IMG/VR virus record: IMGVR_UViG_3300025150_000002
Location: 128,001-192,000 of that record
DNA length: 64,000 nt
Reading direction: 5' to 3' (one strand)
From: a virus
Lineage: Duplodnaviria > Caudoviricetes
Part shown: piece after piece, positions 4,417 to 62,355 of the stretch
Layout of the letters: each line of letters opens with the position of its first letter
Numbering within the stretch: position 1 is the stretch's first letter
Notes under the pieces: generated by a model
What the model saw: the letters and a program-made list of their open reading frames with translations, nothing else
What the model was told of the DNA's origin: nothing
The model's database searches: none
Program-made: the position numbers and the translations under genes

Positions 4417-4650
4417 TTGGTGTTCCAGGTAAACGACCGAGTCAGAAAGCGATTCTGCTTCGGAGGGACCTCGAAGCGCTTCAACCCTGAGGGTACCGTT
4501 GTCGGCATCAACGGTAGGTGGATCCACGTCTTGCACGACAAACCAGTGTACCCTCAGGGTATGGTAGCTGCTCAGCCAGATAGGTTCGACTATCTGGCTG
4601 AGGAGCTAGAGCACATCAATCCGCTGTTACGGATTGCCTTCGAGAACTAG
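4417..4650 (+). CDS. Small SH3-like hypothetical protein
   Basis: AGGAG RBS then TTG; FQVNDRVR...GTVVGI pattern; ends NPLLRIAFEN. Confidence 0.55.
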   Translation: MVFQVNDRVRKRFCFGGTSKRFNPEGTVVGINGRWIHVLHDKPVYPQGMVAAQPDRFDYLAEELEHINPLLRIAFEN

Positions 4651-6035
4651 TTGGCAAGAATCTTCATGAGGGCTCCCCACACACGCTCCTGCGCGTCCAG
4701 GTCCTCAAGGAAAATCGCCTCCATTTCCTTCTGTGTCTTGGCCTCCACGCCCATCAGCTCGTAGCCGGTGCCGGTCTCCTTCTTCTTGAGGAGCTCGTAG
4801 CGCTTCGCGTACTCCCACAACCAGATGGTGTTATCGGTGTCTCCGACGCGCCGACCGTGCCCAGCCCGCATCCAGTAGTGGAAGGTCCCGTAACGGCCTG
4901 GCGGACAGATGCCAGAATCGGTGACCTTGCACTCGATCTCGATGAAGTCGGAGGTGTCGTCCTCGCCGGGCTTCCACTTGCCTCCGAACTTCGTGACGTG
5001 GTCCTTGTAGCCACCCTTTCCGTCCGACAGAAGGTAGTGCTTCTGTCGCTTCTGGAACTTGATGTCACAGGCGCTGGTGTAGCCCTGACCGAGTCCACCC
5101 GGCATGACATCCGGGTTGCCGAACGCCGATGTCTTGTTGCGAATCTGGTTGATGCAGATGACGGTCGGCTTTCGGGTGCTGAGGATGTCTTTGCTCACCA
5201 GCGAGCAGACCCACTTGCGCATGGCTGAGTTGACCAGCATGGCGTTCCGCCCGATGGTCTTACCCTTCTCGGCGGCCTTCTGAAGCTCGTCGGCGCTGGT
5301 GATCTGTGCGATCGAGTCGATGATCACCAGCCCGATTCCGGCGTCGGACCGCAAAGCAGCGTCGGCGATGTCGACGACCTGCTCACCGCCTTTGGGTGAG
5401 ACCATAGCAAGTCGCTCTGGGGCGATACCGTGGGCCTCAGCCCACGGCCGGTTATCCGAGATACGACCCTCGACATCCACGTAGAGACACTTGGCGTAGA
5501 TGAACGGGCCCACGCACTTACACAGCAGACGGTGCTCGAAGCAGCGTCCGCAGTGGTTGGAGGTGAAGGCCTCGGCACAGTTCAGCGCCGACCCGGTTTT
5601 GGCACTCTTGGGCACTCCCCAGAACCGATAAAGGCGGCCTCTGCGGAGGCCTCCGTAGCACAGACGGTCGAGGACGAAGTTACCGGTCGACATGACCGGC
5701 GTGCCATCTACTGGTAGATCAGACGCCCTTTCGATGGAGCCAGGCCACCGCTCTTGGGCCGCAGTCATCCAGGCGTCGAACGGATCGGGTTCAACCTCGT
5801 CCTTCTTCTTGCGGCCCGCCTTCTTCTTGGTCTTCTTGACCTTTGCGGCCGGTTCGGTCTCACCATCCTCGTCAGCGTCGGGTTCGTCCGACTGATCAGA
5901 CGAGTCATCTGCTGGCTCGTCTGCTGGTTCTTCGAAGGCCTCATCAGCTTCAACCGTGTCTATGGCGGCAGGAGCATCAGTGATCTTCTTGGAGGTTGAT
6001 CGCTTCTTGGTTGTCTTCTTCTTCTTTTTAGCCAT
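4647..6035 (-). CDS. recA: RecA-like recombinase with Lys-rich/acidic N-terminal extension
   Basis: STGNFVLD, GVPKSAKT Walker A, VIIDSIAQ Walker B, INQIR, MPGGLGQGY. Confidence 0.82.
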   Translation of the reverse strand: MAKKKKKTTKKRSTSKKITDAPAAIDTVEADEAFEEPADEPADDSSDQSDEPDADEDGETEPAAKVKKTKKKAGRKKKDEVEPDPFDAWMTAAQERWPGSIERASDLPVDGTPVMSTGNFVLDRLCYGGLRRGRLYRFWGVPKSAKTGSALNCAEAFTSNHCGRCFEHRLLCKCVGPFIYAKCLYVDVEGRISDNRPWAEAHGIAPERLAMVSPKGGEQVVDIADAALRSDAGIGLVIIDSIAQITSADELQKAAEKGKTIGRNAMLVNSAMRKWVCSLVSKDILSTRKPTVICINQIRNKTSAFGNPDVMPGGLGQGYTSACDIKFQKRQKHYLLSDGKGGYKDHVTKFGGKWKPGEDDTSDFIEIECKVTDSGICPPGRYGTFHYWMRAGHGRRVGDTDNTIWLWEYAKRYELLKKKETGTGYELMGVEAKTQKEMEAIFLEDLDAQERVWGALMKILAN

Positions 6036-6062
6036 GGGTTCCTATCAGCGATTCGTAAGGGG

Positions 6063-6476
6063 TTAGATCGCGATGTCGTCCAGGGCCTTCTTGATGATCG
6101 GGATCTCGCGCATGACGCGCTCCTTCGCCATTCGATAGGCGAGCTCGATCGCGTCTGGGAGCTCCTCCTTGTAGCAAGGGAGGTAAACGCCTACCTCTAC
6201 GCCCACAGACTGAAAGCTGCGAGATAGCTTGACAGGCACGCTGACGTGGGCGACGGCGGGTGTGGTGGCGAAGATCTGCACCTCAATGACTTGCTCAGTA
6301 GAGGCCGAGTCTTGGTCGACGCCATCAAGCTTCACGGTGCGCTGAACGACGACCTTGGTCTCGGCGGTTACAGGGACCATCGCAGCCTCAAGAGCTGCAG
6401 GATCCTTCGTAACCTCAGGTTCGTCAATTACTTCGGTAGTCGGTTCATCAAACATTGAGGTCCTCGGTGTAGTCAC
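6063..6476 (-). CDS. Hypothetical protein
   Basis: Operon context; ends KALDDIAI. Confidence 0.6.
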   Translation of the reverse strand: MTTPRTSMFDEPTTEVIDEPEVTKDPAALEAAMVPVTAETKVVVQRTVKLDGVDQDSASTEQVIEVQIFATTPAVAHVSVPVKLSRSFQSVGVEVGVYLPCYKEELPDAIELAYRMAKERVMREIPIIKKALDDIAI

Positions 6477-6972
6477 TGACGATCGGAATGGGCCGGTCGC
6501 TTAGTTGAGTTGTCTGCCAAGACTCTTTTACCCGGAGTGACCACTCATCGAGCCGACCACTTTTTGACACGACTTGGGCAATCAAGAAAACCACGAACTC
6601 AGCAGGATACCAACGTCGCCCGAGAGAGTCCTTTGCGTAGTTGAGCGGAATGTAGCCTTTCTTTTCCCAATTCACAATCGTACGAGCAGAAACCCCCAAC
6701 AAACTGGCTACCTTGCCACTGCTCAGCAGCGTGACGCTGATCCCGTTCATCACGATGAGCTTGTCACGGTTGAACGATCTCCTCCGATCGCTTCCGCTCT
6801 TCTTTTTTCTCTGCCTACGCACGGATGCCTTGATGCTCTCCTGGTAGGAAGGGTCGTTGGCGTAACGCTCGCGGCGCCGCTTAAGGATCCTCTCTGCTTT
6901 CCTGCGGTCCTCCCGCCACCGCCTGCGCGACTCGTCCCGGCGAATAAGACTGATGATTGGGTCGTTGGTCAC
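6448..6972 (-). CDS. MerR-like HTH DNA-binding protein
   Basis: SGKVASLLGVSARTIVNWEKKGYIP...GRRWY. Confidence 0.7.
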   Translation of the reverse strand: MTNDPIISLIRRDESRRRWREDRRKAERILKRRRERYANDPSYQESIKASVRRQRKKKSGSDRRRSFNRDKLIVMNGISVTLLSSGKVASLLGVSARTIVNWEKKGYIPLNYAKDSLGRRWYPAEFVVFLIAQVVSKSGRLDEWSLRVKESWQTTQLSDRPIPIVSDYTEDLNV

Positions 6973-6974
6973 GA

Positions 6975-9734
6975 CTAGCTGGGGTTCCTGGTGATTCTGG
7001 TCACCTTGATTCCGAGCTGAGCATAGGTGTCGTAACGTCGATCAGCCTTTCGGATGGCGTAGTCTACGTTTTCGTAAGGATCGATGGCCAACAACGGGCG
7101 CCGGTCGGCCGGACCCTTATCGCGGAGACGTCCAATAGGCTGGAGTGGCTTTCCTGGAGGAGTCGCAAAGAGAAGCGTATCGATGTGAGGGATGTTCATG
7201 GCGTCGCGGCCGAACGCGTACGTGCAGAAGATCACATCACCGCTCATCGCGTCGTCGAGCTTGGAGCCCTTCAGGCCGCCAACAAGCAAGGTGACATTTG
7301 TGTCCTCATCGAGGAGCAGGAGCTCGTCAGACGCGTCGGGGGAGGATGCATCGGGGGAGGATGCGTATACCAGTGCGTCTAGGACGTTTAGCCTGGCCGA
7401 GAAATTCTCCTTCAGAGCCTTAAGGTGATCCTTCAACCGGGCGAAAACCAAAACCCGTCGCCCTTTACCCCGCATCTTGACCAGCTCATTTACGAGGAAT
7501 TCGTTGCGCCGTGTGTCCTCGGCCAACATCTTGTCGTACTTGAGAGGGTCCGGCATTGGTTCGCCGCTAGGGGTCCTCTTCCACGAGTTGGTGTATTCCC
7601 GCACCTCGTAGCGCTTTTTGTAGAGGACCTGGACGACATCCGGCTTCGGCGTCGCCATGACGACCTTATGGATGATTGGACCGAAGTGCCACGTTACGAG
7701 TTTGTCCAGGCCGTCATCCCTAGTAGGGTCGGCCGACATTCCTACCCTGTAACGTGTAGGAAAGAGCTTCATGACCTCGTTCCACTGCGGTGCACCGAAT
7801 CGGTTGCAGTTGTGGACCAACAGCCCATTGGCAACAAACGAGTGGTGCTCATCAACTTCCAGGTCAAACACGGGGTCATATACTGAAGCGTCTTCTACGA
7901 TCCTCGTAATCGTCGGGAAATTTGTAACGCATGGAAGGCGCAGCGTAATCTCTGACAATCCGTAGCCACTTGATGGCTTCTCTGACTTTGAGTTTGATGA
8001 TCCAGTACTTCCCTTTTGATGGGTACACTGAGCCATCGACCTTGAATCGGTCGTAGATGTAGTCCCGGAGCAGGCACACTTCGTCTTTGGAGAAGCCCTC
8101 AGTGTGAAATCTGATACCACCTCTTTGGCAGTTCCCATCGTCCATGTACCACCACGCCCATCCCTCATCAGAGATCGCAGATAACCACGCCGGGTTGACC
8201 TGTCTGCCGGGCCCGACACGGTCTCGCACTGAGAGCAGTGATGGGTGGGTGCAACTTGTTCCTCTGTAGAGGACATCTCCGTAACCGTGGTTCTCTTTTT
8301 CTCTGACCTGGACGTGCAGTCCGACAAGTCGTTGGGCTTTGTAATACGCCCAGTCTTTTTGTCGTGGACCATGGTTGAACACGATCCCTGGATAGACGAT
8401 TCCCCGCCCTCGGCCCCCTCCTGATCTTCCTCCGGTCCTGGAGGTGTTTGAGTAAAGAGCGCTGTCTCCGAGCAGTGTTCCGTAGACAAGTCCAAGGCAG
8501 TCGTCTGAGAGTGGGCGCCTGACGCCTTTGCAGCCGTTGTGCCCCAACACAACGCGCGGCCATTTGTAGTTCTTGATTCGAGCTCTTTCGAGGTCTGCTC
8601 GGACGCGCAGCTGTTCCCCACAGCCACAGGCACAGAATGGCGCTGATTCGTTGAGAATCCGGATTCGCTCTTCCCAGTCAATTGATCTGCGACGATTGTG
8701 GTGCCCCCGTACGAACCGTCGTCTTCGACCCCGTTTGTCACGTCTTGGGACAGACTCTCCGCAACCGCACTCACAGGCGATAGTAGCCGCATCCCCTCCT
8801 TTAGATTTTGAGCCTGAATCCAGCCTCGATCTGTCCGAATCAGGTGTTCTGGAGTGCATCGAAGAGTGACCCCTTCCGATGTTTCGATCGCCAGAGTCCT
8901 CTTCACACCCTTTGGAACCCATCTAATGATCCTCCGATAAGTCCATCGCTCATGATACTCATCGTAACATAGCACTGAACTGGCACCGGAACCAGGAATA
9001 TCTTTGATGGGCACTTTACCCACATCCGTGTCGATGAGGGAGTCACCAGCGATGCACTCGTCAGCCACGATCACGCCAAACTGGGCGTAGAGCTCGGGCG
9101 GGTATTCCTTCTCGCTGAGCAGGCTCTGCACCATCATGATAGTGACGGGGCGTCCTAGATCGCAGCGATCACGCTGAACAATCCCTATCTCCTCATCATT
9201 GAGTCCGAACAGCCATTTGGCTGTTTCGACCCAGTTCTTGACCATGTGCTCGTTATAGACCAACACACCAATGGTGGTGTTCAGCCGGTGGCCGATCGCA
9301 TATCCGAGGATTGTCTTACCGCACCCGGTGGGGGCGCACAAAATACCGCCGGAATGTTCCTTCAGATGCTTGACAACCATCTCTACGGCGAGCGGCTGGC
9401 CTCGTTTCGAATCGAGGACTGCGTTGAACGGTAGGTTCGTTGGTCGACCGTCGACCCACTCGAATTTGATGTCGTGGTTTCCGAGCTTTCGCTTACTGAT
9501 GGATTCAGCGAAGAAGAACCTGGGGATCCAGAAGTAGCCATCCTTCTTGTAAAAGGCTTCCACATCGATAGCAGGCGCGTCGTTCCACGACTTCATCTGT
9601 AGCGTTAGCCGCTCTTGCATGTCTAACTGTACGTCTACCTTGAGCTTCTTGGCCAGGATGCCAAGATAGCCTTGTAGCCGATACACATCAGGCTCAGAGG
9701 TCGTAGACATAACAGTCGGGCCTCGCACTCCCAT
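6975..9734 (-). CDS. SF2 DExH helicase (UvsW/XPB-like) with intein
   Basis: APTGCGKT, VADE[intein]CNRFG, GMSADPTR, QPIGRLR. Confidence 0.88.
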   Translation of the reverse strand: MGVRGPTVMSTTSEPDVYRLQGYLGILAKKLKVDVQLDMQERLTLQMKSWNDAPAIDVEAFYKKDGYFWIPRFFFAESISKRKLGNHDIKFEWVDGRPTNLPFNAVLDSKRGQPLAVEMVVKHLKEHSGGILCAPTGCGKTILGYAIGHRLNTTIGVLVYNEHMVKNWVETAKWLFGLNDEEIGIVQRDRCDLGRPVTIMMVQSLLSEKEYPPELYAQFGVIVADECIAGDSLIDTDVGKVPIKDIPGSGASSVLCYDEYHERWTYRRIIRWVPKGVKRTLAIETSEGVTLRCTPEHLIRTDRGWIQAQNLKEGMRLLSPVSAVAESLSQDVTNGVEDDGSYGGTTIVADQLTGKSESGFSTNQRHSVPVAVGNSCASEQTSKELESRTTNGRALCWGTTAAKASGAHSQTTALDLSTEHCSETALFTQTPPGPEEDQEGAEGGESSIQGSCSTMVHDKKTGRITKPNDLSDCTSRSEKKRTTVTEMSSTEEQVAPTHHCSQCETVSGPADRSTRRGYLRSLMRDGRGGTWTMGTAKEVVSDFTLRASPKTKCACSGTTSTTDSRSMAQCTHQKGSTGSSNSKSEKPSSGYGLSEITLRLPCVTNFPTITRIVEDASVYDPVFDLEVDEHHSFVANGLLVHNCNRFGAPQWNEVMKLFPTRYRVGMSADPTRDDGLDKLVTWHFGPIIHKVVMATPKPDVVQVLYKKRYEVREYTNSWKRTPSGEPMPDPLKYDKMLAEDTRRNEFLVNELVKMRGKGRRVLVFARLKDHLKALKENFSARLNVLDALVYASSPDASSPDASDELLLLDEDTNVTLLVGGLKGSKLDDAMSGDVIFCTYAFGRDAMNIPHIDTLLFATPPGKPLQPIGRLRDKGPADRRPLLAIDPYENVDYAIRKADRRYDTYAQLGIKVTRITRNPS
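7809..9056 (-). mobile_element. Intein (416 aa) in helicase motif II; endonuclease not in frame
   Basis: CIAGD...TPEH block B...FDLEVDEHHSFVANGLLVHN|C; Ser/Thr-rich interior. Confidence 0.9.
7876..8922 (-). CDS. LAGLIDADG homing endonuclease overlapping the intein in the -1 frame
   Basis: GGAGG 8 nt before ATG 8922; CxCGCG x2, VYGTLLGDS, AWWYMDDG, FHTEGFS. Confidence 0.85.
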   Translation of the reverse strand: MGSKGCEEDSGDRNIGRGHSSMHSRTPDSDRSRLDSGSKSKGGDAATIACECGCGESVPRRDKRGRRRRFVRGHHNRRRSIDWEERIRILNESAPFCACGCGEQLRVRADLERARIKNYKWPRVVLGHNGCKGVRRPLSDDCLGLVYGTLLGDSALYSNTSRTGGRSGGGRGRGIVYPGIVFNHGPRQKDWAYYKAQRLVGLHVQVREKENHGYGDVLYRGTSCTHPSLLSVRDRVGPGRQVNPAWLSAISDEGWAWWYMDDGNCQRGGIRFHTEGFSKDEVCLLRDYIYDRFKVDGSVYPSKGKYWIIKLKVREAIKWLRIVRDYAAPSMRYKFPDDYEDRRRRFSI

Positions 9735-18750: not shown

Positions 18751-20424
18751 TTACCCGAAAAGGGAGAAGAAACCTCGCTTTGCTCCGGTGATGACGACTG
18801 TGAAGCTGGCGCTGTTGTTCAGGGTGCGTCCGTCGACCACCAGCCGCACCAGCCCCTTGACCTTGTTGCGGCCCAGATCACTGGTCGTCCAGGTCAGCCG
18901 GTGGCGAAGACCGTCCGGGGATGTCGCGTAGCGCTGGGCCACACCCCTCAGGGCGCAAACCTTCCACGACCTACCACCATCGAGCGAGTAGTCGATTGAG
19001 ACCGTAACGGGCCGCGAATCGCTGTTACGCAGCACAAAGGTGAGCTCCAGGTCGCCCTTTCCGGCGAACGACCCCTCCTTGAACCAGGCGTAGGTCAGGC
19101 CGGTGCTCGCGATGTCGTGGGTCTGACCGCCGACCGACCCGCTGAGCTTGAGGAGCTCGTCGCTGTTGAGCGGGCCGCGAAGGTAGCTGTAGGCCCACCG
19201 AATCTTGGTCACGGCATGATCGCCGGCTCGCTTGAGCACCAGGAAGTGACGCTGGGGGATCGCCGACAGCGTAGCCTGATCGACGTTCCGGTTCTCCAGC
19301 TCCTTCTTGAGGTCGCGGGCGCAGTCCCGAGGACGAAGGTTCCCGAGGAACCAGGTACCGACGTTGGTCAGCGCCTTGTAGTCCATGTCGTTCGGGTTCT
19401 GAGTCCCGATCAACATGCCGATACCCTGAGCACGGCCCTGCGCCAGGAGGGTGCAGATCGGCTTCTTGGTCGGGGGATTCTTCGGGTAGGGCGGCAGGTA
19501 ACCGCGCGCCTCATCGATTACGACGAGCAGCTTCAGCTTGTTGCTCGCCGGCATGCGGAACATGTAGTCGACAATCGATGACAGCAGCATCGCTGCGAAG
19601 AACTGCCGCTCGTTCTCGTCCAGGTGGCGCAGGGTGAACACCGACACCTTGGGCTTGTCGGATCCTACATACCTGTCGACCGACAGGGGACCACCGTCTA
19701 GCCACTTGGCCGCCTGACGGCGGAAGCCGACAATGGACCGCGCGATCTGCATCCGGCGCTTCTTCGGGAAGAAGTCGTCCAGCTTAAGACCATCGATGGT
19801 CTGGAACTTCGCGGGCGGGTTGTTGAGCACGGCGGCCCAGGTCTCCAGTCCGGCGGGGGTTTGCGTCTGCCAGGCGTCGACCACGACATCGGTCAAGAGC
19901 ACGTTTGCCGGGTCCGTCATGGGGTCGGCCGTGTGCCCGATCGCGCTAAGGATCGATGCGACAAGCGATGCGGCCCGATCACGCAGCGCCTGCTCGCTGT
20001 GATCCCCAACCGGACGGTCAAAGGAGGCCAACACGTTGACGGCCTGTCCGCCACCCTGGGTCTTACCCGGCGCGTAGATGGTGACCTCGGCTGAGTCTTT
20101 CCACCTCTTGACGTTAGGTGCCAGGTGACCAAGCTCATCACGGGCGCGCTCCGCCGCCTCTACTGGATCCTTGCCGTCCTCCATCCAGGGGGTGAACTCC
20201 TCGCTGGTCAGGTTGGGGAATGCGAGCGCCAGGTTGGTGAGGTCGCCCTTAGGATCGATCACGATCGCAGAGGCACCGCTGAGGACAGCCTCCTCAATGA
20301 TGGCGACCGTGGCTCCGGTCTTACCCGAGCCCGTCTTCCCCAGAACCACACCGTGGGTCGTAAGGTCAGCCGGGTCAATGGTCAGCTGCGATCCATCGTT
20401 CGTGTATCCGATCAGCATGGTCAT
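18751..20424 (-). CDS. HerA/FtsK-superfamily ATPase with beta-rich C-terminal domain
   Basis: LGKTGSGKT, IDPKGD, VIDEARGYLP, GRAQGIG...TQNP. Confidence 0.8.
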   Translation of the reverse strand: MTMLIGYTNDGSQLTIDPADLTTHGVVLGKTGSGKTGATVAIIEEAVLSGASAIVIDPKGDLTNLALAFPNLTSEEFTPWMEDGKDPVEAAERARDELGHLAPNVKRWKDSAEVTIYAPGKTQGGGQAVNVLASFDRPVGDHSEQALRDRAASLVASILSAIGHTADPMTDPANVLLTDVVVDAWQTQTPAGLETWAAVLNNPPAKFQTIDGLKLDDFFPKKRRMQIARSIVGFRRQAAKWLDGGPLSVDRYVGSDKPKVSVFTLRHLDENERQFFAAMLLSSIVDYMFRMPASNKLKLLVVIDEARGYLPPYPKNPPTKKPICTLLAQGRAQGIGMLIGTQNPNDMDYKALTNVGTWFLGNLRPRDCARDLKKELENRNVDQATLSAIPQRHFLVLKRAGDHAVTKIRWAYSYLRGPLNSDELLKLSGSVGGQTHDIASTGLTYAWFKEGSFAGKGDLELTFVLRNSDSRPVTVSIDYSLDGGRSWKVCALRGVAQRYATSPDGLRHRLTWTTSDLGRNKVKGLVRLVVDGRTLNNSASFTVVITGAKRGFFSLFG

Positions 20425-20512: not shown

Positions 20513-21040
20513 GTGGCCATGAACATCAAGGAATTTTTCAAGGCGAGGGACGACTCTGATCGAAGAAGTCGGTTCAACCCTAACCGTAACCTTCGGCTGT
20601 CCTATGTTCGTACGGAGCCAAAGGGATGGCCGCTGACACGGCCTGCCACCAGTATCGAGTGGGCGCATGTGCTCAAGGTTATGATCATGCGCCGCGTCCC
20701 GAAGTCGGGACCGATACATCAGATCAAACTGATCCGGTACGTATCAGAGGACTTGTTGGCCGCCAGCGCGGCGGGCAAGATCTACGTAGACAATGACTTC
20801 GTCGAGATGCGAAGGGTCATGGGAGTCTTCGAGAACATGTGCGGACGAGATAGGACGCTGCGCACAGCCCCTTTCATGGAGGATCCGGATATGGCCTATG
20901 AAGCACCAGCTGTTTACAGAACGGACGCGGCAGATCGCTGGCTGGAGAGGGTCCCGGTCGTCGTTATGGCGGTTGTGAACCAACTCCCAACTACGAGTGT
21001 ACTCGACATGATGGTCCAGGCATTGTTGGATGATGAGTAG
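20513..21040 (+). CDS. Hypothetical protein
   Basis: RBS GAAGGGG; ends SVLDMMVQALLDDE. Confidence 0.55.
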   Translation: MAMNIKEFFKARDDSDRRSRFNPNRNLRLSYVRTEPKGWPLTRPATSIEWAHVLKVMIMRRVPKSGPIHQIKLIRYVSEDLLAASAAGKIYVDNDFVEMRRVMGVFENMCGRDRTLRTAPFMEDPDMAYEAPAVYRTDAADRWLERVPVVVMAVVNQLPTTSVLDMMVQALLDDE

Positions 21041-21680: not shown

Positions 21681-21737
21681 GGACGATTTATACCGCGTAC
21701 GGTTGTCGGAGGCGCCAGGTAGAAGAACAGTGAAGGG

Positions 21738-24924: not shown

Positions 24925-24981
24925 CGGCTCGTCCTGTCCCAAGTCAACGCCCGGTATAATCTGATCAGCACCGGAGTTGCC

Positions 24982-45622: not shown

Positions 45623-46149
45623 CAAGGGAAAGCGACGGACGAGAAAGGTACTGGCGGCAGGTCAGACAAATCGCCGATGAGCACGATGTCTCCATTCCGG
45701 AGGCGCGGGCCATGTGGTCTCGCCTCTTCAAGCCAGGTGGGATCAAGAAGATGGTGCTGGCCCTCTCAGTTAGCTCATCACCAGCGATGTCGACAGTCTG
45801 CCCGTTCTGCCGAACTGAGCTACCAGTCTTACATCAACACGAGGGTGCGTGTGGCCGCTGTGGATCGAGTGACCACCCCGAGCCGGGCGATGTTGACTGT
45901 TCACCCGAGCCGGTGTGGAGCTGCTCGAACTGTAGGACCACCATGCACCAGGAGTGCTACGACGAGCTCGGTCGCTGCTCAACACTAGGATGTCGATCGT
46001 CTAGGATTGTGGCCCGTCTGCGGCCCGCGCCTGGTTATGAGCGAGACTACGCGGGCCTGCCCAGCCGTGGTGTCCTACTGTCCTTGGCGATGGTTGGTGT
46101 CGCGGGGCTTCTTCTCATCGTCCTCGCTGTTATTAGGCTGTTCTGGTAG
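45619..46149 (+). CDS. RING/PHD-like Zn-finger protein with C-terminal TM helix
   Basis: CPFC...CSNC...HQEC...CSTLGC. Confidence 0.6.
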   Translation: MTRESDGRERYWRQVRQIADEHDVSIPEARAMWSRLFKPGGIKKMVLALSVSSSPAMSTVCPFCRTELPVLHQHEGACGRCGSSDHPEPGDVDCSPEPVWSCSNCRTTMHQECYDELGRCSTLGCRSSRIVARLRPAPGYERDYAGLPSRGVLLSLAMVGVAGLLLIVLAVIRLFW

Positions 46150-47116
46150 TTGCCAGGTCGACCGCTTCGGGCGTCTTGATGACCCGGAAGAACTCAGGTC
46201 GCACGACCGTGATCTTGTGACGCGTTCGGATCGCGCGCCGCAGCGACATGCCGTTGGGGTCAACGAAGTTCGGCGTCACAGTCACCATCGTATAGGGGCT
46301 GTAGACGATGCCTGTATCAAGCATGCCGCCCTGGTACCAGGTCATCAGGTGGCTCTTCGGAAAGAGCGGGTCCAGGTAGACGGTCTTACTTGTAGGCCCC
46401 TCGCCTAGAGTCCCCACCTTCTGGACTTGACCGTTGCTGATCGGAACGCTGATGCCAAGTTTGACCAGCGTTTCCTCATTTCCGATGACCCTGTTGGCAG
46501 GCATTCGCTGGGTACGCTGGTGGACACGGTTCGACGTACGAGATAGCTCTTCTAGCAGATCACAGTCTTCTGATACCAGATCTGTGTTGCTCGGGAGCAG
46601 GGCTATGTTGAGCATCGTGCCCAGGATTTCGCGCGTGATCTCAGTCAGGAACTCCTCGACCGCTAGGTCGAGCACACTGATGTCGCCTATGAGAGATTTG
46701 ACTCTTCTGGTTTCGGCACAGATGTCCTGGTCGGCGATTTTCAACCTGATCTCAGGAACCGTGACCTGGGTCGGCTTACCGGTCGTCTGGTTGGTGACGG
46801 TTATCTCAACCGTCCCACCAGTCTTCGGCTGATACCACAAAATGATACCGATCGGCCCGAGCATTGGCTGCGTGCTGCAGAGGTCAGGCAGGGGGTGCGC
46901 CTGCAGCTGAGCTTTGAGGGCGTCCCCGATTTTCTCGTGCCAGGTGTCGGGAAAGACTAGACCTCTCGTCTCCTCAGCCAACTGCTTGAAGTGCTTGTCC
47001 TGGTTCTCCAGGACGGCGGCGATGAGATTCGAGCGATCGTTGTCGTTTTCAAGACCCCACTTTGCGCGCAAGCGCTCCAGGGTCGCTAGAGTTGCGGTGG
47101 GCGGGTTGGTTGCCAT
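46133..47116 (-). CDS. Shortened T4 gp23-like major-capsid-fold paralog
   Basis: KW...AAVLENQ, DLCSTQPMLGPIG, GIVYSPY, RRAIRTRH...VVRPEFF. Confidence 0.7.
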   Translation of the reverse strand: MATNPPTATLATLERLRAKWGLENDNDRSNLIAAVLENQDKHFKQLAEETRGLVFPDTWHEKIGDALKAQLQAHPLPDLCSTQPMLGPIGIILWYQPKTGGTVEITVTNQTTGKPTQVTVPEIRLKIADQDICAETRRVKSLIGDISVLDLAVEEFLTEITREILGTMLNIALLPSNTDLVSEDCDLLEELSRTSNRVHQRTQRMPANRVIGNEETLVKLGISVPISNGQVQKVGTLGEGPTSKTVYLDPLFPKSHLMTWYQGGMLDTGIVYSPYTMVTVTPNFVDPNGMSLRRAIRTRHKITVVRPEFFRVIKTPEAVDLATTRTA

Positions 47117-47161
47117 GTTACCTCCAGTGATGGATGGTACCACAGCCTCATCAGATTGGCA

Positions 47162-47425
47162 TCAGTTACCGTGGGTCGCCACAACGATTTGATCCAACAC
47201 GTCTAGCGCTACCAGCTCGTGTAGGTAGGCGCGGATGGACTGACGCGCCTGCCACGGCCAGGGTGTGCGGTCCCCCGGCCAGGGAACAAGATAGTAGGGC
47301 GGCAACAAGGAGCCGTCGATGTAGTCGACCACCCAGATCCCACTGTCAAACCGCGACCGAGCTCGCAGTGTTAGCCGAACCTTGTCGCCTATAAGCGGGT
47401 AGGTCTTACCCTTTCCCCAGCTCAC
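47162..47425 (-). CDS. Small SH3-like hypothetical protein
   Basis: LIGDKVRL; ends DVLDQIVVAT. Confidence 0.55.
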   Translation of the reverse strand: MSWGKGKTYPLIGDKVRLTLRARSRFDSGIWVVDYIDGSLLPPYYLVPWPGDRTPWPWQARQSIRAYLHELVALDVLDQIVVATHGN

Positions 47426-47691
47426 AGCTCGCCTACGATCCTATCCAGGATGTTGATGGTATCGATCTTCTCGACCCACCTGGGTGAATACCAAATGCGC
47501 GGTCCGCGTGATGTCGTAAGCGGTCCACCAGTTAGGTCCCAATGAATCTGGACCTCTCCGTCGTCACGGTCGTTCTCAGGGAGACACTCGATGACGGTGC
47601 CCTGCCACATCCAGTCGTATCCACCGTCCCTCACGAAGACGACTCGGTCACCGAGGCCAAGGAAGTGCCCTCCAGGAGTTGCCCAGGCCAT
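47422..47691 (-). CDS. Small SH3-like hypothetical protein
   Basis: LGDRVVF...GTVIE; ends NILDRIVGEL. Confidence 0.6.
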   Translation of the reverse strand: MAWATPGGHFLGLGDRVVFVRDGGYDWMWQGTVIECLPENDRDDGEVQIHWDLTGGPLTTSRGPRIWYSPRWVEKIDTINILDRIVGEL

Positions 47692-48119: not shown

Positions 48120-48423
48120 CGTCCTCGCCTACGATCTCGTGGGTCGAGTAGGCCGCAGCTGTCATGTCAGGGTGGACCACCCACCACACGTCGCCGCCGT
48201 GGCCACCAACATAGCCGGCGAGCCGGCCAATGGTTCCAGGGCGCCGGGCGTCGATGTATTTCTCGGCGACGATGAATCCGCCGGTTCCCATGAGAGGGTC
48301 GGTCGTCTTGATCATCTTTCCGCCGTTCACGCGCACTTGCTCACGGAGCAGCAGAAGGCCGTCGTCCTCGGATCCGGACAGCTGAAAGACGCGCTCCAAC
48401 TCGCGAAGCCTGACGTCACTCAT
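48097..48423 (-). CDS. Hypothetical protein with MSDxRLRxxER leader
   Basis: GAGGA RBS before ATG 48423. Confidence 0.6.
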   Translation of the reverse strand: MSDVRLRELERVFQLSGSEDDGLLLLREQVRVNGGKMIKTTDPLMGTGGFIVAEKYIDARRPGTIGRLAGYVGGHGGDVWWVVHPDMTAAAYSTHEIVGEDGGSAFDE

Positions 48424-48754
48424 CAGAGTCCTCGGTTGCTGCGGCCAGGAGATCAAGCACGGTAGTGTTCGGCGGGCTGTGAAGGCCCTCTAGCTCGGGC
48501 GGGCAGAACACGGTGTTACCGTTTTTCGGAGAAAACCATACGGCGACGTGGCAAGTAAGTCGTGGGCACTCCTGTGCGAGGTCAAGCTCTCCAGACGACA
48601 CGCGTGCTGTTCCGGTTGGGACCAACTCGATCCCGTGGATCGGACAACAGTCACGGCTTAGGCGTTGGATGCGGTCCGCCTTTGACTGACGGGACCGACT
48701 CACTAGAGAGCCACCTGGCGTGGCTTGAGAAAGATGTGCCCGCAGTGCTTGCAC
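48416..48754 (-). CDS. Zn-binding hypothetical protein
   Basis: CCPIHG...CPRLTC; ends TVLDLLAAAT. Confidence 0.5.
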   Translation of the reverse strand: MQALRAHLSQATPGGSLVSRSRQSKADRIQRLSRDCCPIHGIELVPTGTARVSSGELDLAQECPRLTCHVAVWFSPKNGNTVFCPPELEGLHSPPNTTVLDLLAAATEDSDE

Positions 48755-48861: not shown

Positions 48862-49331
48862 TGCGCGGACTCCTGTGCTGGTGTGTCGTGCTCCAGTCGG
48901 ATCAGAAACGGCGGACGGTAATTCGGAAACACCGCGCGAACCCAGTGGTCCCAGTGCGTGTTTTTCCAGTCGATCGGATCGACTATCCACGGCTCGAACT
49001 GGTAGTTGATGACGCCAACTTGTAGACAGGACGGGTCGGATAGCTTCATCGTCATGCTCGTCGGACGGGTCCAGTAAGCGAACACCAGAGCGTCTGCGTA
49101 AAGGGTGCCCTGGTTCGGCCGCGTGGACATGTCGAGTCCGACGATGACCTCCTTCGCGTCGCTAAGCTTGTTCCAGTAGTGGTTGATCAGCTGAGGAACG
49201 TCGACGGCTAGAGCATGCATCTCCAGCGTATCGTCCTGCTTGAGGACCAACATCTGGTGAGGGTAAACCCCCTCCTCGTCGATCGATCGCTCGATTAGCT
49301 CGAAGAACATCTGCGGAAGCGTCTTAGTCAC
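48858..49331 (-). CDS. Hypothetical protein
   Basis: Operon context. Confidence 0.6.
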   Translation of the reverse strand: MTKTLPQMFFELIERSIDEEGVYPHQMLVLKQDDTLEMHALAVDVPQLINHYWNKLSDAKEVIVGLDMSTRPNQGTLYADALVFAYWTRPTSMTMKLSDPSCLQVGVINYQFEPWIVDPIDWKNTHWDHWVRAVFPNYRPPFLIRLEHDTPAQESAQ

Positions 49332-49576
49332 TTGCCCACCTGCTCAGCATCGTTGATCGCCTTCACGATCCGGTCCAAGACCGGCACGGTCTCGTCGACG
49401 AGCTCCCATCCGTGGATCGAGCACATCAACCGGCACACCTCGCGGTCCATGTCAAACGGTCCCTCGATCTCGTAGTCGATGCCGGGAAATCTCTTCTCCA
49501 TGAAGGTCCGAAGGTGACCATCGATCTGCTCGACCGTCATAAACCTCTTCGTTGTCATGTAACCGTGGTTGGCCAT
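49328..49576 (-). CDS. Hypothetical protein
   Basis: Ends PVLDRIVKAI. Confidence 0.55.
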   Translation of the reverse strand: MANHGYMTTKRFMTVEQIDGHLRTFMEKRFPGIDYEIEGPFDMDREVCRLMCSIHGWELVDETVPVLDRIVKAINDAEQVGK

Positions 49577-50274
49577 TACGGTAACTCTGATGCCGCCGCC
49601 TCGTCGGCGAGGCGCTCAGCCTCCTCGTCGGCGAGACGCTCAGCCTCTCGCTCGTCCAGCAGCTCCTGAAGCTCGGCGTACGACCAGCCACGCAGGTCCA
49701 TCATCATCCGCCGCCACAGTGGGTTATCCGGGTCGTTGATCCCATCAACCACGGCCAGCTGGCCGTTTGTTGCCGAGCCGTGGCCGCCACCAGCTCCACG
49801 GCAGTCCTCGTTCATCCACTGGAACTCGAACTCGCAGTCCGAGAAAAGAGAGGCCATCTTCTCGAAGACCGGAAAGGGAGGCGACCACGCCGTCTGGAAC
49901 GCCACCGACGCGACGGTGGAGTCCGTGCCTACGCGCGCCAGCTGGTCCAGGACCCCGAGGTCACTGTCGACCTCGACCTCATATGCGTCCCACTTGGTGC
50001 CCCAGTTGTCGGGGTTCCATGTGTTCCAGCAGAACGGGTTCGGATCGCCGCCCCCGAGTCGGTGGTTGTAGTGGCTGTGAGAGCAGGTGTCGTTGTTGTA
50101 GTCAGGGTGGTCGGGAGGAGGCACGAACCCTCGAAACGAGAAGGCTCGGCGCTGGTAATCCGACACCTTGCCCGTCGCCGGGTCTATCGGCTCGTAGACA
50201 CCTAGTGCCAGAAACTCTGCCACCCGTGTTCTCGGACCGCTGATCGTGATCTTGTTTGATACGTGGTTCGGCAT
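49576..50274 (-). CDS. DUF1281/YubB ferredoxin-like domain protein
   Basis: MPNHVSN, NWGTKWDA, FQTAWSPP. Confidence 0.8.
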   Translation of the reverse strand: MPNHVSNKITISGPRTRVAEFLALGVYEPIDPATGKVSDYQRRAFSFRGFVPPPDHPDYNNDTCSHSHYNHRLGGGDPNPFCWNTWNPDNWGTKWDAYEVEVDSDLGVLDQLARVGTDSTVASVAFQTAWSPPFPVFEKMASLFSDCEFEFQWMNEDCRGAGGGHGSATNGQLAVVDGINDPDNPLWRRMMMDLRGWSYAELQELLDEREAERLADEEAERLADEAAASELP

Positions 50275-50533: not shown

Positions 50534-50821
50534 CTATGGCTTGATCCGAGCGAGAGACTCCAGCACTAGGTGCGCGCGAAGCGCTCTCAGTACCTTTGCG
50601 CACTCTCGCTTTTTTACGACCTTCTTCTGGCCCGGAGAGGTCGAGAAGACGAGCTGGTTTGAACCACGAGGGTCGTGCACGATAGAAGGCCGACCGTTGA
50701 TCGATGTCATTATCAACCAATCCCCTATCCAAGCCTCTTCGTGTTCCGCCATTCGACAGGATATTACGGCGAGCGCTACGAGCTCGGCCTCCAGTTCCTT
50801 CGTCCACGGCTGGTAGGGCAT
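50534..50821 (-). CDS. Hypothetical protein
   Basis: Ends LVLESLARIKP. Confidence 0.55.
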   Translation of the reverse strand: MPYQPWTKELEAELVALAVISCRMAEHEEAWIGDWLIMTSINGRPSIVHDPRGSNQLVFSTSPGQKKVVKKRECAKVLRALRAHLVLESLARIKP

Positions 50822-54195: not shown

Positions 54196-54387
54196 ATGAG
54201 CACCAACACCCAGAGTTCCAACGTCCCGTGCGACGGCCCCGAGTGCGTCCTTTGCCAGCTGACCGGGCCTCCCGATATGGTCCAGGTCTGGGTCAAGGAC
54301 CTAGACGACGGCGAGTGGAAGTCGCTCACCATGAAGCGGGCGCGGGCGCTAGAGCTCGGCCTTATCAAGGATGCCACTGATGCTTGA
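54196..54387 (+). CDS. Hypothetical protein (likely leaderless)
   Basis: GGTAGAAC 6 nt before ATG. Confidence 0.55.
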   Translation: MSTNTQSSNVPCDGPECVLCQLTGPPDMVQVWVKDLDDGEWKSLTMKRARALELGLIKDATDA

Positions 54388-54628
54388 GCCGAGAATCAGG
54401 GTGTTCTGGAGCGCAAAGGATTACGACCTGAAGGCTGCATGGGACGCTGGGTGCGCTTCTCAAGACGGCGGCTACCTACTGTTCTTGCTTTTCAACAAGA
54501 CGTTCCTGGAGGCGCTGGACGAGCGTGGCTACGACATCAAGACGCTCAGGTTCCAGATCAGAAAGAAGCCACCAAACGCGCTCGACCGAATCGTCAACGC
54601 AATCAACGAGGCAGAGGAGAAGGTGTAA
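54371..54628 (+). CDS. Hypothetical protein
   Basis: Ends NALDRIVNAI. Confidence 0.6.
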   Translation: MPLMLEPRIRVFWSAKDYDLKAAWDAGCASQDGGYLLFLLFNKTFLEALDERGYDIKTLRFQIRKKPPNALDRIVNAINEAEEKV

Positions 54629-55191
54629 TGGGCTACGAGACTGAGATTTACCTGGTAGACAAGGGCCATGACGACTGCCTCGTCCAGTGGCAGCCTGCCT
54701 CAGAGCACTGGTACACCGCGACCAGGAACCCGCTCGACCGGTTGGTCGAGGCCACCGGCGAGGTCAATAAGGACCCGCTTCAAGGGGTTCCGGCCGACGC
54801 CCTGTTCTCGGATGGCGGAGTGATCATCGCTTCGCTGAGGATGGGTACGATCGGGAGTGGTGGCCACGACGATGGAGAGCTCGACGACTTCTTCGCCAAG
54901 AACCGCGAGAGGCAGAAGATGGAGAAGAAGTTCCTCCTCCTTAAGTGGATGCCGAGCGACTGCCTCAACACCAGCGAGTGGCCCGATGTCACCGACCCCT
55001 ACGGCGACCCCTACGTCCTGCACGACGCCCAAGGCACCCTGGATGCCCTCAATCGAACCATCGAGCGCAAGCTGAAGGAGAACGATGGAGTGCTGTATAC
55101 GATCGATCGGCGCTATTCCATGTTGAAGGCCATCCTCGTTCCTTTCATCGCTGGATGGCCGAACCCAGCGGTGGTGACACGTGGCTACTGA
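54628..55191 (+). CDS. Hypothetical protein
   Basis: TAATG overlap; internal NPLDRLVEAT. Confidence 0.6.
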   Translation: MGYETEIYLVDKGHDDCLVQWQPASEHWYTATRNPLDRLVEATGEVNKDPLQGVPADALFSDGGVIIASLRMGTIGSGGHDDGELDDFFAKNRERQKMEKKFLLLKWMPSDCLNTSEWPDVTDPYGDPYVLHDAQGTLDALNRTIERKLKENDGVLYTIDRRYSMLKAILVPFIAGWPNPAVVTRGY

Positions 55192-55489
55192 GCGAGAGGA
55201 CAACAAGCTGCTTCAGGCGGTCCGCGAGAGTCATTGTGACCGAAAGGACCGCAAGCACGCCTGCGCCGGTGTCATCACCATCTCGCCGCAGGGCTACAAG
55301 CTAGACTGCAACTTGTGCGGAGGTCTCGACTACAAGACCGAGCCCTGGAGTAATCAGGAGAGCGACGGGCTGGAGATCGTCAAGGCAGTGCTGCGGACCA
55401 TCGGTCTCGACTGGTCAGCCCTGTCCGCAGATATCCAACTAGAGCTCATCAAGACGGTGAGCAAGATGCTCATCAAGAGGGGAGAGTGA
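55181..55489 (+). CDS. Hypothetical protein
   Basis: Operon context; Cys/His cluster. Confidence 0.55.
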   Translation: MATEREDNKLLQAVRESHCDRKDRKHACAGVITISPQGYKLDCNLCGGLDYKTEPWSNQESDGLEIVKAVLRTIGLDWSALSADIQLELIKTVSKMLIKRGE

Positions 55490-55804: not shown

Positions 55805-56329
55805 ATGCCTAAGCACGTCGAGCGCGAGCGGTTTCCTGTTCCTGGAGCGTTCGGACTAGAGCGGTCCAAGGAGCGATCCGAAGAGAACTGGCTACGCCGC
55901 ACCCAGTCTAACTGGGACTACCTCAACCGTGCCGGTTCCTACCAGGATCACCTCTACATCTACGTTGAGGAGGAGTACGGTTACCGTAGCCACGTGTGGA
56001 CCTATCCTGGAACCGCGCAGGAGCTAGTCGAGGACTGGTGCGCTGGGCTCACTCCCTGGCAAGGTAGGTTCAAGGGAGATTTCAAACAGGTTGATTTCGT
56101 CACGTCAGGTGACCATCGAGGACGTGATTACCCAAGAGCTATGAACCTTGTCCTGGTTCAGACCGGTGAGGTCTTCCCGGGCATCTACGAACTAGATGAT
56201 TTTGATGGGGAGTGTCACATCCACGAGGATGATGACGCTTATCTGAAGGTGGGTTTCTACAGAGTGCGTGGACGCGACAACCCTGAGGTCGAGTTCCGGG
56301 TGCTAGACGCTCTGGCTTCGATTAGATGA
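55805..56329 (+). CDS. Hypothetical protein
   Basis: Ends RVLDALASIR. Confidence 0.6.
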   Translation: MPKHVERERFPVPGAFGLERSKERSEENWLRRTQSNWDYLNRAGSYQDHLYIYVEEEYGYRSHVWTYPGTAQELVEDWCAGLTPWQGRFKGDFKQVDFVTSGDHRGRDYPRAMNLVLVQTGEVFPGIYELDDFDGECHIHEDDDAYLKVGFYRVRGRDNPEVEFRVLDALASIR

Positions 56330-56941: not shown

Positions 56942-57121
56942 CTAAAGCTCGGCAACTAGCCTATCGAGAACGTTGGCCTCCTCATTCACGTAGATCTGGT
57001 TGTTGGCCACGATGATGAAGCCAACGTCATCGTCGTTCTCCCCCTCCCAAGTCACCTTGCCCTTGAGTACGTAACCCCAAGGGGTTAGGAAGTTGGTGAT
57101 GAGGTACTGCAGCCACTTGAC
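56942..57121 (-). pseudogene. C-terminal remnant of a conserved phage gene, in frame after the HNH stop
   Basis: VKWLQYLITNFLTPWGYVLKGKVTWEGE...NVLDRLVAEL*. Confidence 0.65.
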
Positions 57122-59197: not shown

Positions 59198-59220
59198 TTC
59201 TCAACACTAGGATGAGCTGA

Positions 59221-59247: not shown

Positions 59248-59300
59248 TTGCCACCTCCTTCTCTCTTTCCTTCTACCCGTGAGAGCGGAGATGCATCGAG

Positions 59301-60221: not shown

Positions 60222-60271
60222 GAGTTACCTTTGTGTACACTGTTCTTTGCACCAAATATGTTACCGAGGTC

Positions 60272-60902: not shown

Positions 60903-61058
60903 GGTGGTTAGTTTAGCTTAACCAGCCAGGAATCGTCTAAGGAACAGAACGGTGTGTACATTTTTCGTCAGGACCCCGTAGCTATTGATGCTCCACCATC
61001 GATCAGGAAAGAGGCCGTACCACCAGGCCCAAACTCGATGCATTAGCGCGGGTAGAAC

Positions 61059-61691
61059 GTGAAGGTCGAGACCGACCACGAGGAACACGAGGAACACGAG
61101 GAACACGAGGAACACGAGGAATCCATGAGTGTGAATGAGGACGCCAAGTCACTGTTGTCCAATCTCCGTAACCGGCGAGGTCGCTGGGTCGTGACCGGCA
61201 GCAACCCGATGTTCGGCCCGGCGATGTTCGAGGCCAGCGCGTTCGACGAGATGGTGGAGCTGTACATCGCGGCCCGCGAGTCAGCGGACACGACCGCACT
61301 GCGGAACGAGCTCGACGCCCTAAAGGAGAAGCACAAGAAGCTCTCCGAGGAGTCACACGACCTTCGCATAAAGGCGAAGAGCGCTGACAATATGAGGGAC
61401 GCCTACAACCTCCAACGAGAGAGGTGGATGGCGTTGTCCACGCACCTCCTCCGCGAGGGCGACATCCTTTGCCTGGAGAAGTACAAGCGAAAGGAGCGGC
61501 GTAAGGTCATCAGCTACGATTTCAAGACGAAGTCGTATACGTTCGTGATCTGGGACGAGCGCCGCAAGACCTGGTGCACAACGGTTCACTCCAACACCAT
61601 CGGTCTCATGCTCGACAACGCCGGAATTATCGTCCAGGTGACGCGACCCGGCGACATGGAGCAGGGTGAGAAGAGCGAGAAGCGAAAGTGA
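61059..61691 (+). CDS. Hypothetical coiled-coil protein (start 61059 or ATG 61125)
   Basis: Long ORF; GTGA coupling to the next gene. Confidence 0.6.
   Translation: MKVETDHEEHEEHEEHEEHEESMSVNEDAKSLLSNLRNRRGRWVVTGSNPMFGPAMFEASAFDEMVELYIAARESADTTALRNELDALKEKHKKLSEESHDLRIKAKSADNMRDAYNLQRERWMALSTHLLREGDILCLEKYKRKERRKVISYDFKTKSYTFVIWDERRKTWCTTVHSNTIGLMLDNAGIIVQVTRPGDMEQGEKSEKRK
61077..61121 (+). repeat. (CACGAGGAA)x5 tandem repeat
   Basis: Counted directly. Confidence 0.95.
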
Positions 61692-62107
61692 TCCAGAAGA
61701 CTGTCTACAGAATCCGTATCACTCGCGTGGTCCCCAACGAGTTCTTTTCTGATGAGCCGGTCGGTAGCTACAGCTACTTCAGCCCGTTCCCCGGTACAGG
61801 CCGCCGGTATACGTTCTTGCGGCGAGCCAACATCTGCGATGTGTGCGGTGACCACATCACGGCTATCAACTTCGCCACCATCGCCGAGGCTAACACGAGG
61901 CTCAAGACGGCCTGTGTGAAGGACATCCTTGAGTACTACGGCGATGAGGGAGTTTATCCAGGCAAACACGGTCCGCCCTATCGACTTGACATCGTTGAGG
62001 TCAAGCTAGATCGACGCGAGCGTTACGGGTGGTGCAAGACCAGCGAGCGAGTGGTTCGCCAGATTGTCCCTGAGCCCACGATCCTCGATCAGCTGTCGGT
62101 GATCTGA
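61688..62107 (+). CDS. Hypothetical protein
   Basis: Ends TILDQLSVI. Confidence 0.6.
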   Translation: MIQKTVYRIRITRVVPNEFFSDEPVGSYSYFSPFPGTGRRYTFLRRANICDVCGDHITAINFATIAEANTRLKTACVKDILEYYGDEGVYPGKHGPPYRLDIVEVKLDRRERYGWCKTSERVVRQIVPEPTILDQLSVI

Positions 62108-62355
62108 TGAGCAAGTTCAAGCCCGGTGATGTAGTAAGAGTCGCGGACTACTACGACCTACGACTCGTCGGACACGTGTTCACAGTTCTCGACTTTTCAA
62201 CCCTGTACCACTGCTGGGACCACCCAGTCATCTCTAACCCTTACTATGAGGAGGATGGTCAGTCCAACCCAGCTAGGTGGCCTTGTCTTTACATCAGATT
62301 CAGTCCCGATCAGTTGGAGCACTGGACCGTACTTGATAGGTTGGCGAAGGTTTAA
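62107..62355 (+). CDS. Small SH3-like hypothetical protein
   Basis: KFKPGDVVRV; ends TVLDRLAKV. Confidence 0.65.
   Translation: MSKFKPGDVVRVADYYDLRLVGHVFTVLDFSTLYHCWDHPVISNPYYEEDGQSNPARWPCLYIRFSPDQLEHWTVLDRLAKV

Follow-up and report, generated by a model that had tools for sequence, protein, structure and literature searches.

Terminal docking peptides in described systems

Short peptides that lead different proteins to one partner have been described for several phages and cells. The clamp-binding motifs of phage T4 are hydrophobic-acidic, linker-borne peptides which can be interchanged between proteins and are functional also when internal (PMC2988020). Systems of a von Willebrand factor A domain protein (vWA) and a MoxR ATPase include a zincin peptidase and small proteins that diverge fast except for a conserved C-terminal peptide, and the metal ion-dependent adhesion sites (MIDAS) of the vWA domains were proposed to capture substrate peptides (PMC7159879); a pair of MoxR and peptidase-vWA proteins was noted in jumbo phages (PMC7824862). 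Here we describe a helical peptide of 8–9 residues that is shared by about 30 otherwise unrelated small proteins of an uncultured, huge phage with T4-type head genes and is located mostly at the extreme C-terminus. With a probability of about 0.8, it is a portable short linear motif, a docking tag that is read by one common partner. The stretch of 64,000 nucleotides analysed, in the following the window, comprises bases 128,001–192,000 of the 203,521-bp IMG/VR record IMGVR_UViG_3300025150_000002 (G000). A distant relative, G002, is represented by a complete record of 275 kb that has terminal repeats and a GC content of 65 %.

With the T4 clamp-binding motif of gp43, gp55 and gp33 the tag has in common a short hydrophobic-acidic sequence, the L-D-x-L core, the linker, the position at the extreme C-terminus and unrelated carriers, and the likeness extends to the clients, replication and transcription proteins of a phage with T4-type head genes. 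It differs in the number of clients, three to a few in T4 versus 30–70 here, in the replacement of the aromatic residues by Ala, Ser or Gly and further Ile or Leu, and in the clamp: a gp45-like protein was not detectable and the clamp of G002 is of the DnaN type. The PCNA-interacting peptide (PIP) box and the QL[SD]LF motif of the beta-clamp present the same arrangement of one hub and a short peptide, often the last residues of diverse DNA enzymes and also found internally; however, the tag lacks the conserved Gln, has another spacing, is predicted to form an N-capped alpha-helix and resides on clients mostly of no known function. As in the vWA-MoxR/zincin modules with 'FxSxx-COOH' peptides (Kaur et al. 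2020, PMC7159879; Iyer et al. 2021, PMC7824862), a MoxR protein and a zincin-vWA protein with intact MIDAS are encoded, together with small, fast-diverging proteins that bear a conserved C-terminal peptide with an acidic residue. The published peptides are different, few per genome and encoded beside the peptidase, whereas here dozens are dispersed and linked to the peptidase by co-occurrence. Microcompartment encapsulation peptides, encapsulin cargo peptides and T4 capsid-targeting peptides are likewise short, terminal, often amphipathic helices on linkers of unrelated carriers, but they have another consensus, the T4 signals are N-terminal and cleaved, and the clients here include replication enzymes. 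The acidic tails of T7 gp2.5 and gp4 and the tip of SSB (DDDIPF) are C-terminal peptides which organise a replisome by a repeated docking principle, there with one or two tails and many pockets, here presumably with many tails and one pocket.

Occurrence and sequence constraint of the tag

Open reading frames (ORFs) were obtained by six-frame translation and genes were called with a self-trained codon model. The motif [VIPAL]-L-[DE]-x-[LIM]-[AVSG], starting 6–13 residues before the stop, was counted over the whole record and in 100 composition-preserving shuffles. Twenty-seven proteins of the 203-kb record had a C-terminal motif, compared to 0.30 on average and at most 2 in the shuffles, and the C-terminal rate per position exceeded the internal rate 36-fold. 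A single C-terminal match was present in G005, a relative of similar GC content. These counts confirm the shared peptide noted in a preliminary description of the window, and more strongly than stated there. Fourteen tags begin exactly 8 residues before the stop and read h-L-D-x-L-[AS]-x-I-COOH, typically V-L-D-x-L-A-x-I-COOH. In the window, the motif was located at most 17 residues from the stop in 16 ORFs and at 26 residues in one more (24526); five ORFs had internal copies, namely the SF2 helicase 6975–9734 and the ORFs starting at 35805, 45026, 49576 and 54439. All peptides listed in the preliminary description were present, including the internal ones in the helicase and four further ORFs; its coordinates referred to ORF boundaries, not to the tags. 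The copies in the window, with ORF lengths in amino acids (aa), are:

6063–6086, minus strand: weak case ALDDIAI-stop at the end of a long family helix; ORF 6063–6476
7362–7385, minus strand: copy NVLDALVYA at the start of an acidic insertion loop; intein-bearing SF2 (ResIII) helicase 6975–9734
20999–21022, plus strand: tag VLDMMVQALLDDE-stop; ORF 20513–21040 (175 aa)
21255–21278, minus strand: terminal tag ILDKLAEI-stop; ORF 21252–21755 (167 aa)
24583–24606, minus strand: copy VLDRMAAE, 26 residues before the stop; ORF 24526–24942 (138 aa)
25135–25158, plus strand: FVLDSLSEE, not a tag; ORF 24820–25170, duplicated N-extein
32838–32861, plus strand: terminal tag VLDLMAMI-stop; ORF 32502–32864 (120 aa)
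36093–36116, plus strand: internal copy VLDQIVSAI at residue 97, directly before a DUF3841 domain; ORF 35805–36656 (283 aa)
38157–38180, minus strand: terminal tag ILDDLADI-stop; ORF 38154–38492 (112 aa)
40267–40290, plus strand: tag VLDRLSIIRGPE-stop; ORF 40027–40305 (92 aa)
45449–45472, plus strand: internal copy VLDQLASIG, 57 residues before the stop; ORF 45026–45622 (198 aa)
47177–47200, minus strand: tag VLDQIVVAT, 12 residues before the stop; ORF 47162–47425 (87 aa)
47428–47451, minus strand: tag ILDRIVGEL-stop; ORF 47422–47691 (89 aa)
48437–48460, minus strand: tag VLDLLAAAT, 14 residues before the stop; ORF 48416–48754 (112 aa)
49358–49381, minus strand: tag VLDRIVKAI, 17 residues before the stop; ORF 49328–49576 (82 aa)
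49930–49953, minus strand: internal copy VLDQLARVG at residue 108, directly before a DUF1281_C-like domain; ORF 49576–50274 (232 aa)
50543–50566, minus strand: tag VLESLARIKP-stop; ORF 50534–50821 (95 aa)
54578–54601, plus strand: tag ALDRIVNAI, 16 residues before the stop; ORF 54371–54628 (85 aa)
54730–54753, plus strand: internal copy PLDRLVEAT; ORF 54439–55191 (250 aa)
56300–56323, plus strand: tag VLDALASIR-stop; ORF 55805–56329 (174 aa)
56948–56971, minus strand: tag VLDRLVAEL-stop; short ORF ending at 56942
62081–62104, plus strand: terminal tag ILDQLSVI-stop; ORF 61688–62107 (139 aa)
62329–62352, plus strand: terminal tag VLDRLAKV-stop, starting exactly 8 residues before the stop; ORF 62107–62355 (82 aa)

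The gene call of ORF 54371–54628 is uncertain because it overlaps ORF 54439–55191 in another frame. The proteins 35805 and 49576, with a copy near residue 100 followed by a second domain, look like a tagged module fused to something else. Two sub-flavours were visible in G000: tags that end the protein read h-L-D-x-L-[AS]-x-I-COOH, and tags with residues after them are mostly V-L-D-x-I-V-x-A-[ITV], with about 12 cases including the helicase loop.

Two of the cases in the preliminary description were revised. FVLDSLSEE was rejected as a tag: ORF 24820–25170 (116 aa) is a duplicated, recoded N-extein with 58.8 % identity over 51 aa to that of the intein-bearing DEAD helicase 25167–29435. A P-loop (PTGGGKE) lies just upstream of FVLDSLSEE, and the ORF ends where the real helicase gene starts. 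It looks like a scar or a spare N-terminus from homing-endonuclease or intein traffic. KALDDIAI of ORF 6063–6476 is a weak case. The protein is conserved, has about 130 aa and 67 homologues, and is encoded between a RecA-like gene and the helicase; KALDDIAI ends a long helix within the family fold, and this ending is not kept in more distant members. The family model (pLDDT, predicted local distance difference test, 67) has four long beta-strands and one long helix without a fold match in the PDB. Canonical SSB models matched only in the tag-less G005 and not in the tag clade, so that the protein may be a single-stranded DNA-binding or mediator protein; a PC4-like or SSB identity is conjectural.

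Codons at the Leu, Val and Asp positions of the motif were mixed, with Leu encoded by CTT (5), CTG (8), CTC (7), CTA (5) and TTG (4). All synonymous codons are in use, therefore the constraint acts on the protein rather than on the gene ends as a DNA or RNA signal, in agreement with the conservation at protein level first noted from the free codon variation. A promoter, a ribosome-binding site or a recombination site at the gene ends was rejected as explanation, because synonymous positions are variable and the motif keeps to the reading frame throughout, on both strands.

The carriers had been called unrelated, and at the sequence level this held: phmmer searches with the tags removed (E ≤ 1) revealed one related pair among 30 bodies and BLASTP added one more, thus hidden paralogy was rejected for 28 of the 30. 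Pfam and PHROGs assigned no informative family to the tagged proteins and gave two sub-threshold matches only; charge and isoelectric point did not separate tagged from untagged small proteins. The bodies range from 37 to 232 aa, including a winged-helix-like fold and enzymes, and their genes are scattered over more than 80 kb outside the structural module. The exact VLDRLAEI-stop pattern had no match in IMG/VR beyond the phage's own genome. A strict DNA pattern for LDxL[AS]xI-stop gave no match in five relatives, but this search is insensitive, recovering only 8 of the about 30 tags in the phage's own genome. The motif was not recognised as a described one in the preliminary description, and a full-text literature search found no published account of it; the likeness to the T4 clamp motif SLDFLF/Y and the replication character of the recognisable clients had been missed in that description.

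A predicted helix on linkers and in loops

As a rule, the motif is preceded by one of the helix N-cap residues N, G, T or S. The invariant Asp occupies the capping-box position, the hydrophobic side chains share one face, and the central Leu is followed by a small residue. A family of 127 aa, encoded just upstream of the window, has 22 orthologues of 49–72 % identity, and conservation is highest in its final block MPMSDVGVLDFLSL[LIF]-stop. The AlphaFold model of this protein (mean pLDDT 88) is confident for the body at residues 1–112 (85–97) and places the tag as a short helix behind a linker (pLDDT ~52), not packed on the body; likeness of the body to MarR or winged-helix proteins is weak. 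In the SF2 helicase 6975–9734 the tag is part of a loop: NVLDALVYA is replaced at the same place by NVLDRMVIA or NVLDLIVAA in close relatives and by TAIERLARL in the G002 orthologue, and the whole loop is missing from the helicase of the tag-less G005.

Two flavours in one clade

The capsid proteins of G002 and G000 are 69 % identical and the homologues of the 6063 protein 38 %. G002 has a tag of its own flavour, [S/P]-A-[IV]-[DE]-x-L-[AG]-x-[LIV], often followed by x-R. It was present 8–30 residues before the stop in 46 proteins and in 25 internal or N-terminal copies, compared to 0.07 in shuffles; the tails after the helix are variable, mostly of 0–10 residues, with tag starts 9–20 residues before the stop. 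The flavours are mutually exclusive, neither occurring in the other genome, and with few exceptions no homology was detectable between the tagged small proteins of G000 and those of G002. One orthologous pair (G000 89429–89947, G002 24670–25089) carries VLDDIVEAV versus AIDLLGDVV. The DNA polymerase of G002 has two tag copies, both in G002-specific insertions, its DnaB_C/RecA-like ATPase has an internal copy, and its RNase H-like protein has a C-terminal tag that is absent from the G000 orthologue.

A census with DNA patterns covered 28 related IMG/VR records. The G002 flavour was found in G002 (71, control 6), G012 (33), G015 (17) and G016 (57 in 120 kb), the VLDxLA flavour only in G000 (15 versus 1 in the control). 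All records with about 38 % capsid identity (clade B, two of them complete) were at background. The tag system is thus a trait of one clade. Its flavours, two at least and each genome-wide, speak for co-evolution with one receptor.

The motif, its position, the selection at protein level, its portability and the lineage flavours are established; that one receptor reads all tags, we infer. An amphipathic-helix docking signal for one partner had been suggested from the window and is well supported by protein-level selection, the linker-borne helix, the insertion into loops and the exclusive flavours. The tag would form one to two helical turns that begin with an N-cap (N, G, T or S), followed by two hydrophobic residues, an invariant Asp, Leu, a small residue (A, S or G) and a final hydrophobic residue, exposed on flexible C-terminal linkers or in surface loops of many unrelated phage proteins. 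All tagged proteins would be tethered to one common receptor, with a groove that co-evolved with the flavour, VLDxLAxI in G000 and SA[IV]DxL[AG]x[LIV] in the G002 lineage.

Candidate receptors

We tentatively favour the sliding clamp or a replisome tether as the receptor. The tag would act like the T4 clamp-binding motif or a PIP box and make the clamp a tool-belt, which would hold helicase, polymerase, RNase H-like and recombinase-like enzymes together with dozens of small proteins on the replicating DNA. Clients of recognisable function all act on DNA: a helicase, a polymerase, an RNase H-like protein, a recombinase-like ATPase, the conserved protein encoded next to RecA and a winged-helix-like protein. 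In T4, gp43 ends with ASLDFLFG and gp55 with PSLDFLYEAND, thus the core L-D-x-L is common with the tag. Like the T4 peptide, the tag is hydrophobic-acidic and linker-borne at the extreme C-terminus (14 tags at 8 residues, one good model). One family ends with VLDFLSLI; the aromatic positions of the T4 consensus S-L-D-F-L-F/Y are A, S or G and I or L in most tags. A clamp of the DnaN family was found in G002 and G012 only, directly upstream of the loader, DnaB and primase genes; the clamp-loader subunit DNA_pol3_delta2 was found in G000, G001 and G007 only (E = 4.5e-26). With DnaN in one sublineage and the loader subunit in the other, both sublineages therefore deal with a beta-type clamp. The AAA+ gene for DNA_pol3_delta2 of G000 is located at 54200–55219 of the genome, about 73 kb before the window, and adjoins an intein-bearing class II ribonucleotide reductase. 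Further replication genes of the phage code for a family-A polymerase, a DnaB helicase, a DnaC-like loader, a primase, two SF2 helicases and a RecA-like protein, many of them with inteins; the best identity of the gp23-like capsid protein to any phage of the isolate collection was 34.5 %.

Several observations weigh against the clamp. No clamp gene was detectable in the 203-kb record and a tblastn search with the G002 clamp was empty, too. This record is 99.995 % identical over 20.4 kb to a part of a 355,736-bp NCBI contig (GCA_902729895.1) and therefore covers only ~57 % of the huge-phage genome; the unsampled ~150 kb lie mostly beyond the first base of the record, adjoining two further tagged genes. 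CheckV gave a completeness of 89 % for the record. G002 has a clamp without a detectable clamp loader and G000 a loader without a detectable clamp, and the G000 polymerase has no tag. The motif lacks the T4 aromatic residues as well as the Gln and the spacing of the bacterial motif Q-L-[SD]-L-F or Q-L-x-L-x-h: no Gln precedes it and its hydrophobic residues are at i, i+3 and i+6. A client number of 30–70 far exceeds that of any phage clamp known to us. The replication character of the clients rests on five or six proteins, most clients having no known function, and the clamp as receptor is a guess. Models of gp45-like clamps matched in none of the records, T4 gp55, gp45 and gp62 had no phmmer match in these genomes, and a metagenome scan for a clamp of the G000 lineage returned only G002-like contigs. 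A distant DnaN match was rejected as the clamp of this lineage, it belonged to a cellular chromosome. A predicted complex between the DnaN dimer of G002 and the C-terminal 49 residues of one of the tagged proteins of this phage scored 0.00 in a run without controls and speaks neither for nor against binding. The gene at the syntenic position of the clamp, 14197–15783 (528 aa), is not a clamp; its consensus and an hhalign match (95.9 %) with the G002 gene upstream of DnaN point to a replisome-organiser-like protein. Its product, for which Pfam and PHROGs gave no match, has 40 homologues, a winged-helix-like N-terminus, a low-complexity middle part and a conserved helical C-terminal domain, and is probably an origin-binding replisome organiser.

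A close rival of the clamp, possible if doubtful, is capture of the tag by a machine of a MoxR AAA+ ATPase and a zincin-vWA protein. The MIDAS of the vWA domain would bind the invariant Asp or Glu, MoxR would remodel or release the client and the HExxH site may clip it, so that the tag marks proteins for chaperone-assisted assembly, activation or timed removal. G000 encodes a MoxR/AAA_5 ATPase of 398 aa and, as its pair, a protein of 563 aa in which the HExxH is conserved (CDHELGHILH) and the MIDAS (DxSxS) is intact. The HExxH is conserved in G000, G001 and G002, fused N-terminally to the vWA domain, and the MIDAS of the CobT_C/vWA domain reads DCSAS in G000 and DISGS in G002. Both genes adjoin the DNA polymerase gene, in the G002 lineage between primase and polymerase; in G000 they are found at 118456–123105 of the genome, about 5–10 kb ahead of the window, where genes for a peptide deformylase and an RNase H-like protein are located as well. 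Wherever a tag-bearing record covers the region (G000, G001, G002, G012, L058, L061), it contained the pair, and the vWA protein was missing from all 15 tag-less records searched of clade B or more distant phages; MoxR was checked in G005 only and is missing there. This co-occurrence is confounded by phylogeny, however, with one clade and one origin. The MIDAS is described as binding extended peptides and the tag is predicted to be helical, with an Asp that can be explained as helix-capping residue. Small divergent proteins with a conserved C-terminal peptide exist here as in the published modules, but their genes are scattered rather than placed beside the peptidase, and none of the published peptide types (FxSxx, RxD, acidic) matches the tag.

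Other destinations of the tagged proteins are less probable. Sorting into a container, either the prohead or a phage compartment or condensate around the replicating DNA in the manner of a nuclear localisation signal (NLS), is unlikely. The short amphipathic helix on a linker recalls microcompartment encapsulation peptides and the clients (polymerase, helicase, RNase H-like and winged-helix proteins, small proteins without known function) resemble the imports of nucleus-forming phages; a short gp23-like paralogue (46133–47143) is situated among the tagged genes. This paralogue has 336 aa and shares 38 % identity with the last 250 aa of the major capsid protein (477 aa). Yet the complete G002 with its ~70 tags has no full second gp23-like gene, only a fragment of 146 aa beside a tagged gene, so that the capsid packaging or compartment proposed in the preliminary description is without specific support. 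The tagged genes are found away from the structural module, the tag is not linked to any prohead-protease site, and the clade has no known shell gene. In consensus and position the tag differs from the encapsulin and T4 signals, which are of the GSL type at the C-terminus or N-terminal with an L/I-x-E cleavage site. Rather improbable is also a degron or adaptor tail that is read by a host hub, Clp, Lon or another host protein, and would give the clients a common lifetime or target, with a flavour that tracks the host. Half of the G000 tags end exactly at the C-terminus with L-[AS]-x-I-COOH, ends which resemble tails that are recognised at the C-terminus, for example ssrA LAA or the SspB tail, and many tagged genes stand behind one promoter type, suggesting one temporal class. 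Internal, N-terminal and loop copies do not fit a terminal degron, though, the variable tails in G002 imply that a free carboxylate as in ssrA is not required, and a replicative helicase and a polymerase are unlikely targets of degradation. The protease adaptor suggested earlier is possible via the zincin-vWA/MoxR pair. We consider it very improbable that the tags have no common partner and are a relic of very old paralogy or a generic, stabilising capped C-terminal helix. Two clear paralogue pairs among the tagged proteins, several G002 bodies that look like small beta-barrels and the 6063 family, in which the peptide belongs to the fold, would agree with such an origin. The spread of body sizes and folds, the insertion into loops of helicase and polymerase, the genome-wide switch of flavour between lineages and the unpacked tag helix in the one good model speak against it.

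Upstream elements and neighbouring genes

At least 15 genes have the element GGTAGAAC-N6-ATG upstream at a fixed distance of 14 nt; many of these genes are tagged or head runs of tagged genes. Sites in window coordinates include 32488, 35770, 36652, 38506, 40013, 42188, 54182 and 65926. The element looks like a -10-only promoter, from which leaderless mRNAs would arise. Variants of the form GGGTAAAAC/G are found before replication genes and GGGTATAAG before other genes; a palindrome of 8 bp, GATGCATC, is often located 5–30 nt upstream. Among the accessory genes of the window were a HerA/FtsK/TrwB-like P-loop ATPase (18751–20424, 557 aa) and a glutamine-synthetase-like gene (32861–33946, 361 aa), both without a homologue in G002.

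Implications for huge phages

The tag is a new, unusually large-scale variant of terminal docking peptides, and it would be new in kind if the receptor were a dedicated sorting or handling machine. Such a dedicated receptor, the MIDAS of the zincin-vWA/MoxR pair or a gate of a replication compartment, may sort, assemble or clear a sixth of the phage proteome as one group, replication enzymes included, a view we hold with reservation. If true, this pathway would be undescribed, a phage equivalent of the NLS-importin or F-box-type systems with tag and receptor switching flavour together. If the hub is the clamp, its tool-belt would far exceed any other known in a virus; a hub of MoxR, vWA and peptidase would provide the first substrates for a widespread, unexplained phage module. 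The majority of genes in huge phages are small ORFans without an assigned function. As a label on 12–20 % of the small ORFans of a huge phage and on helicase, polymerase and RNase H-like enzyme, the tag groups these proteins functionally. The switch of flavour between the lineages is a natural co-evolution experiment for finding the receptor, and naming it would place dozens of proteins of no known function at once.

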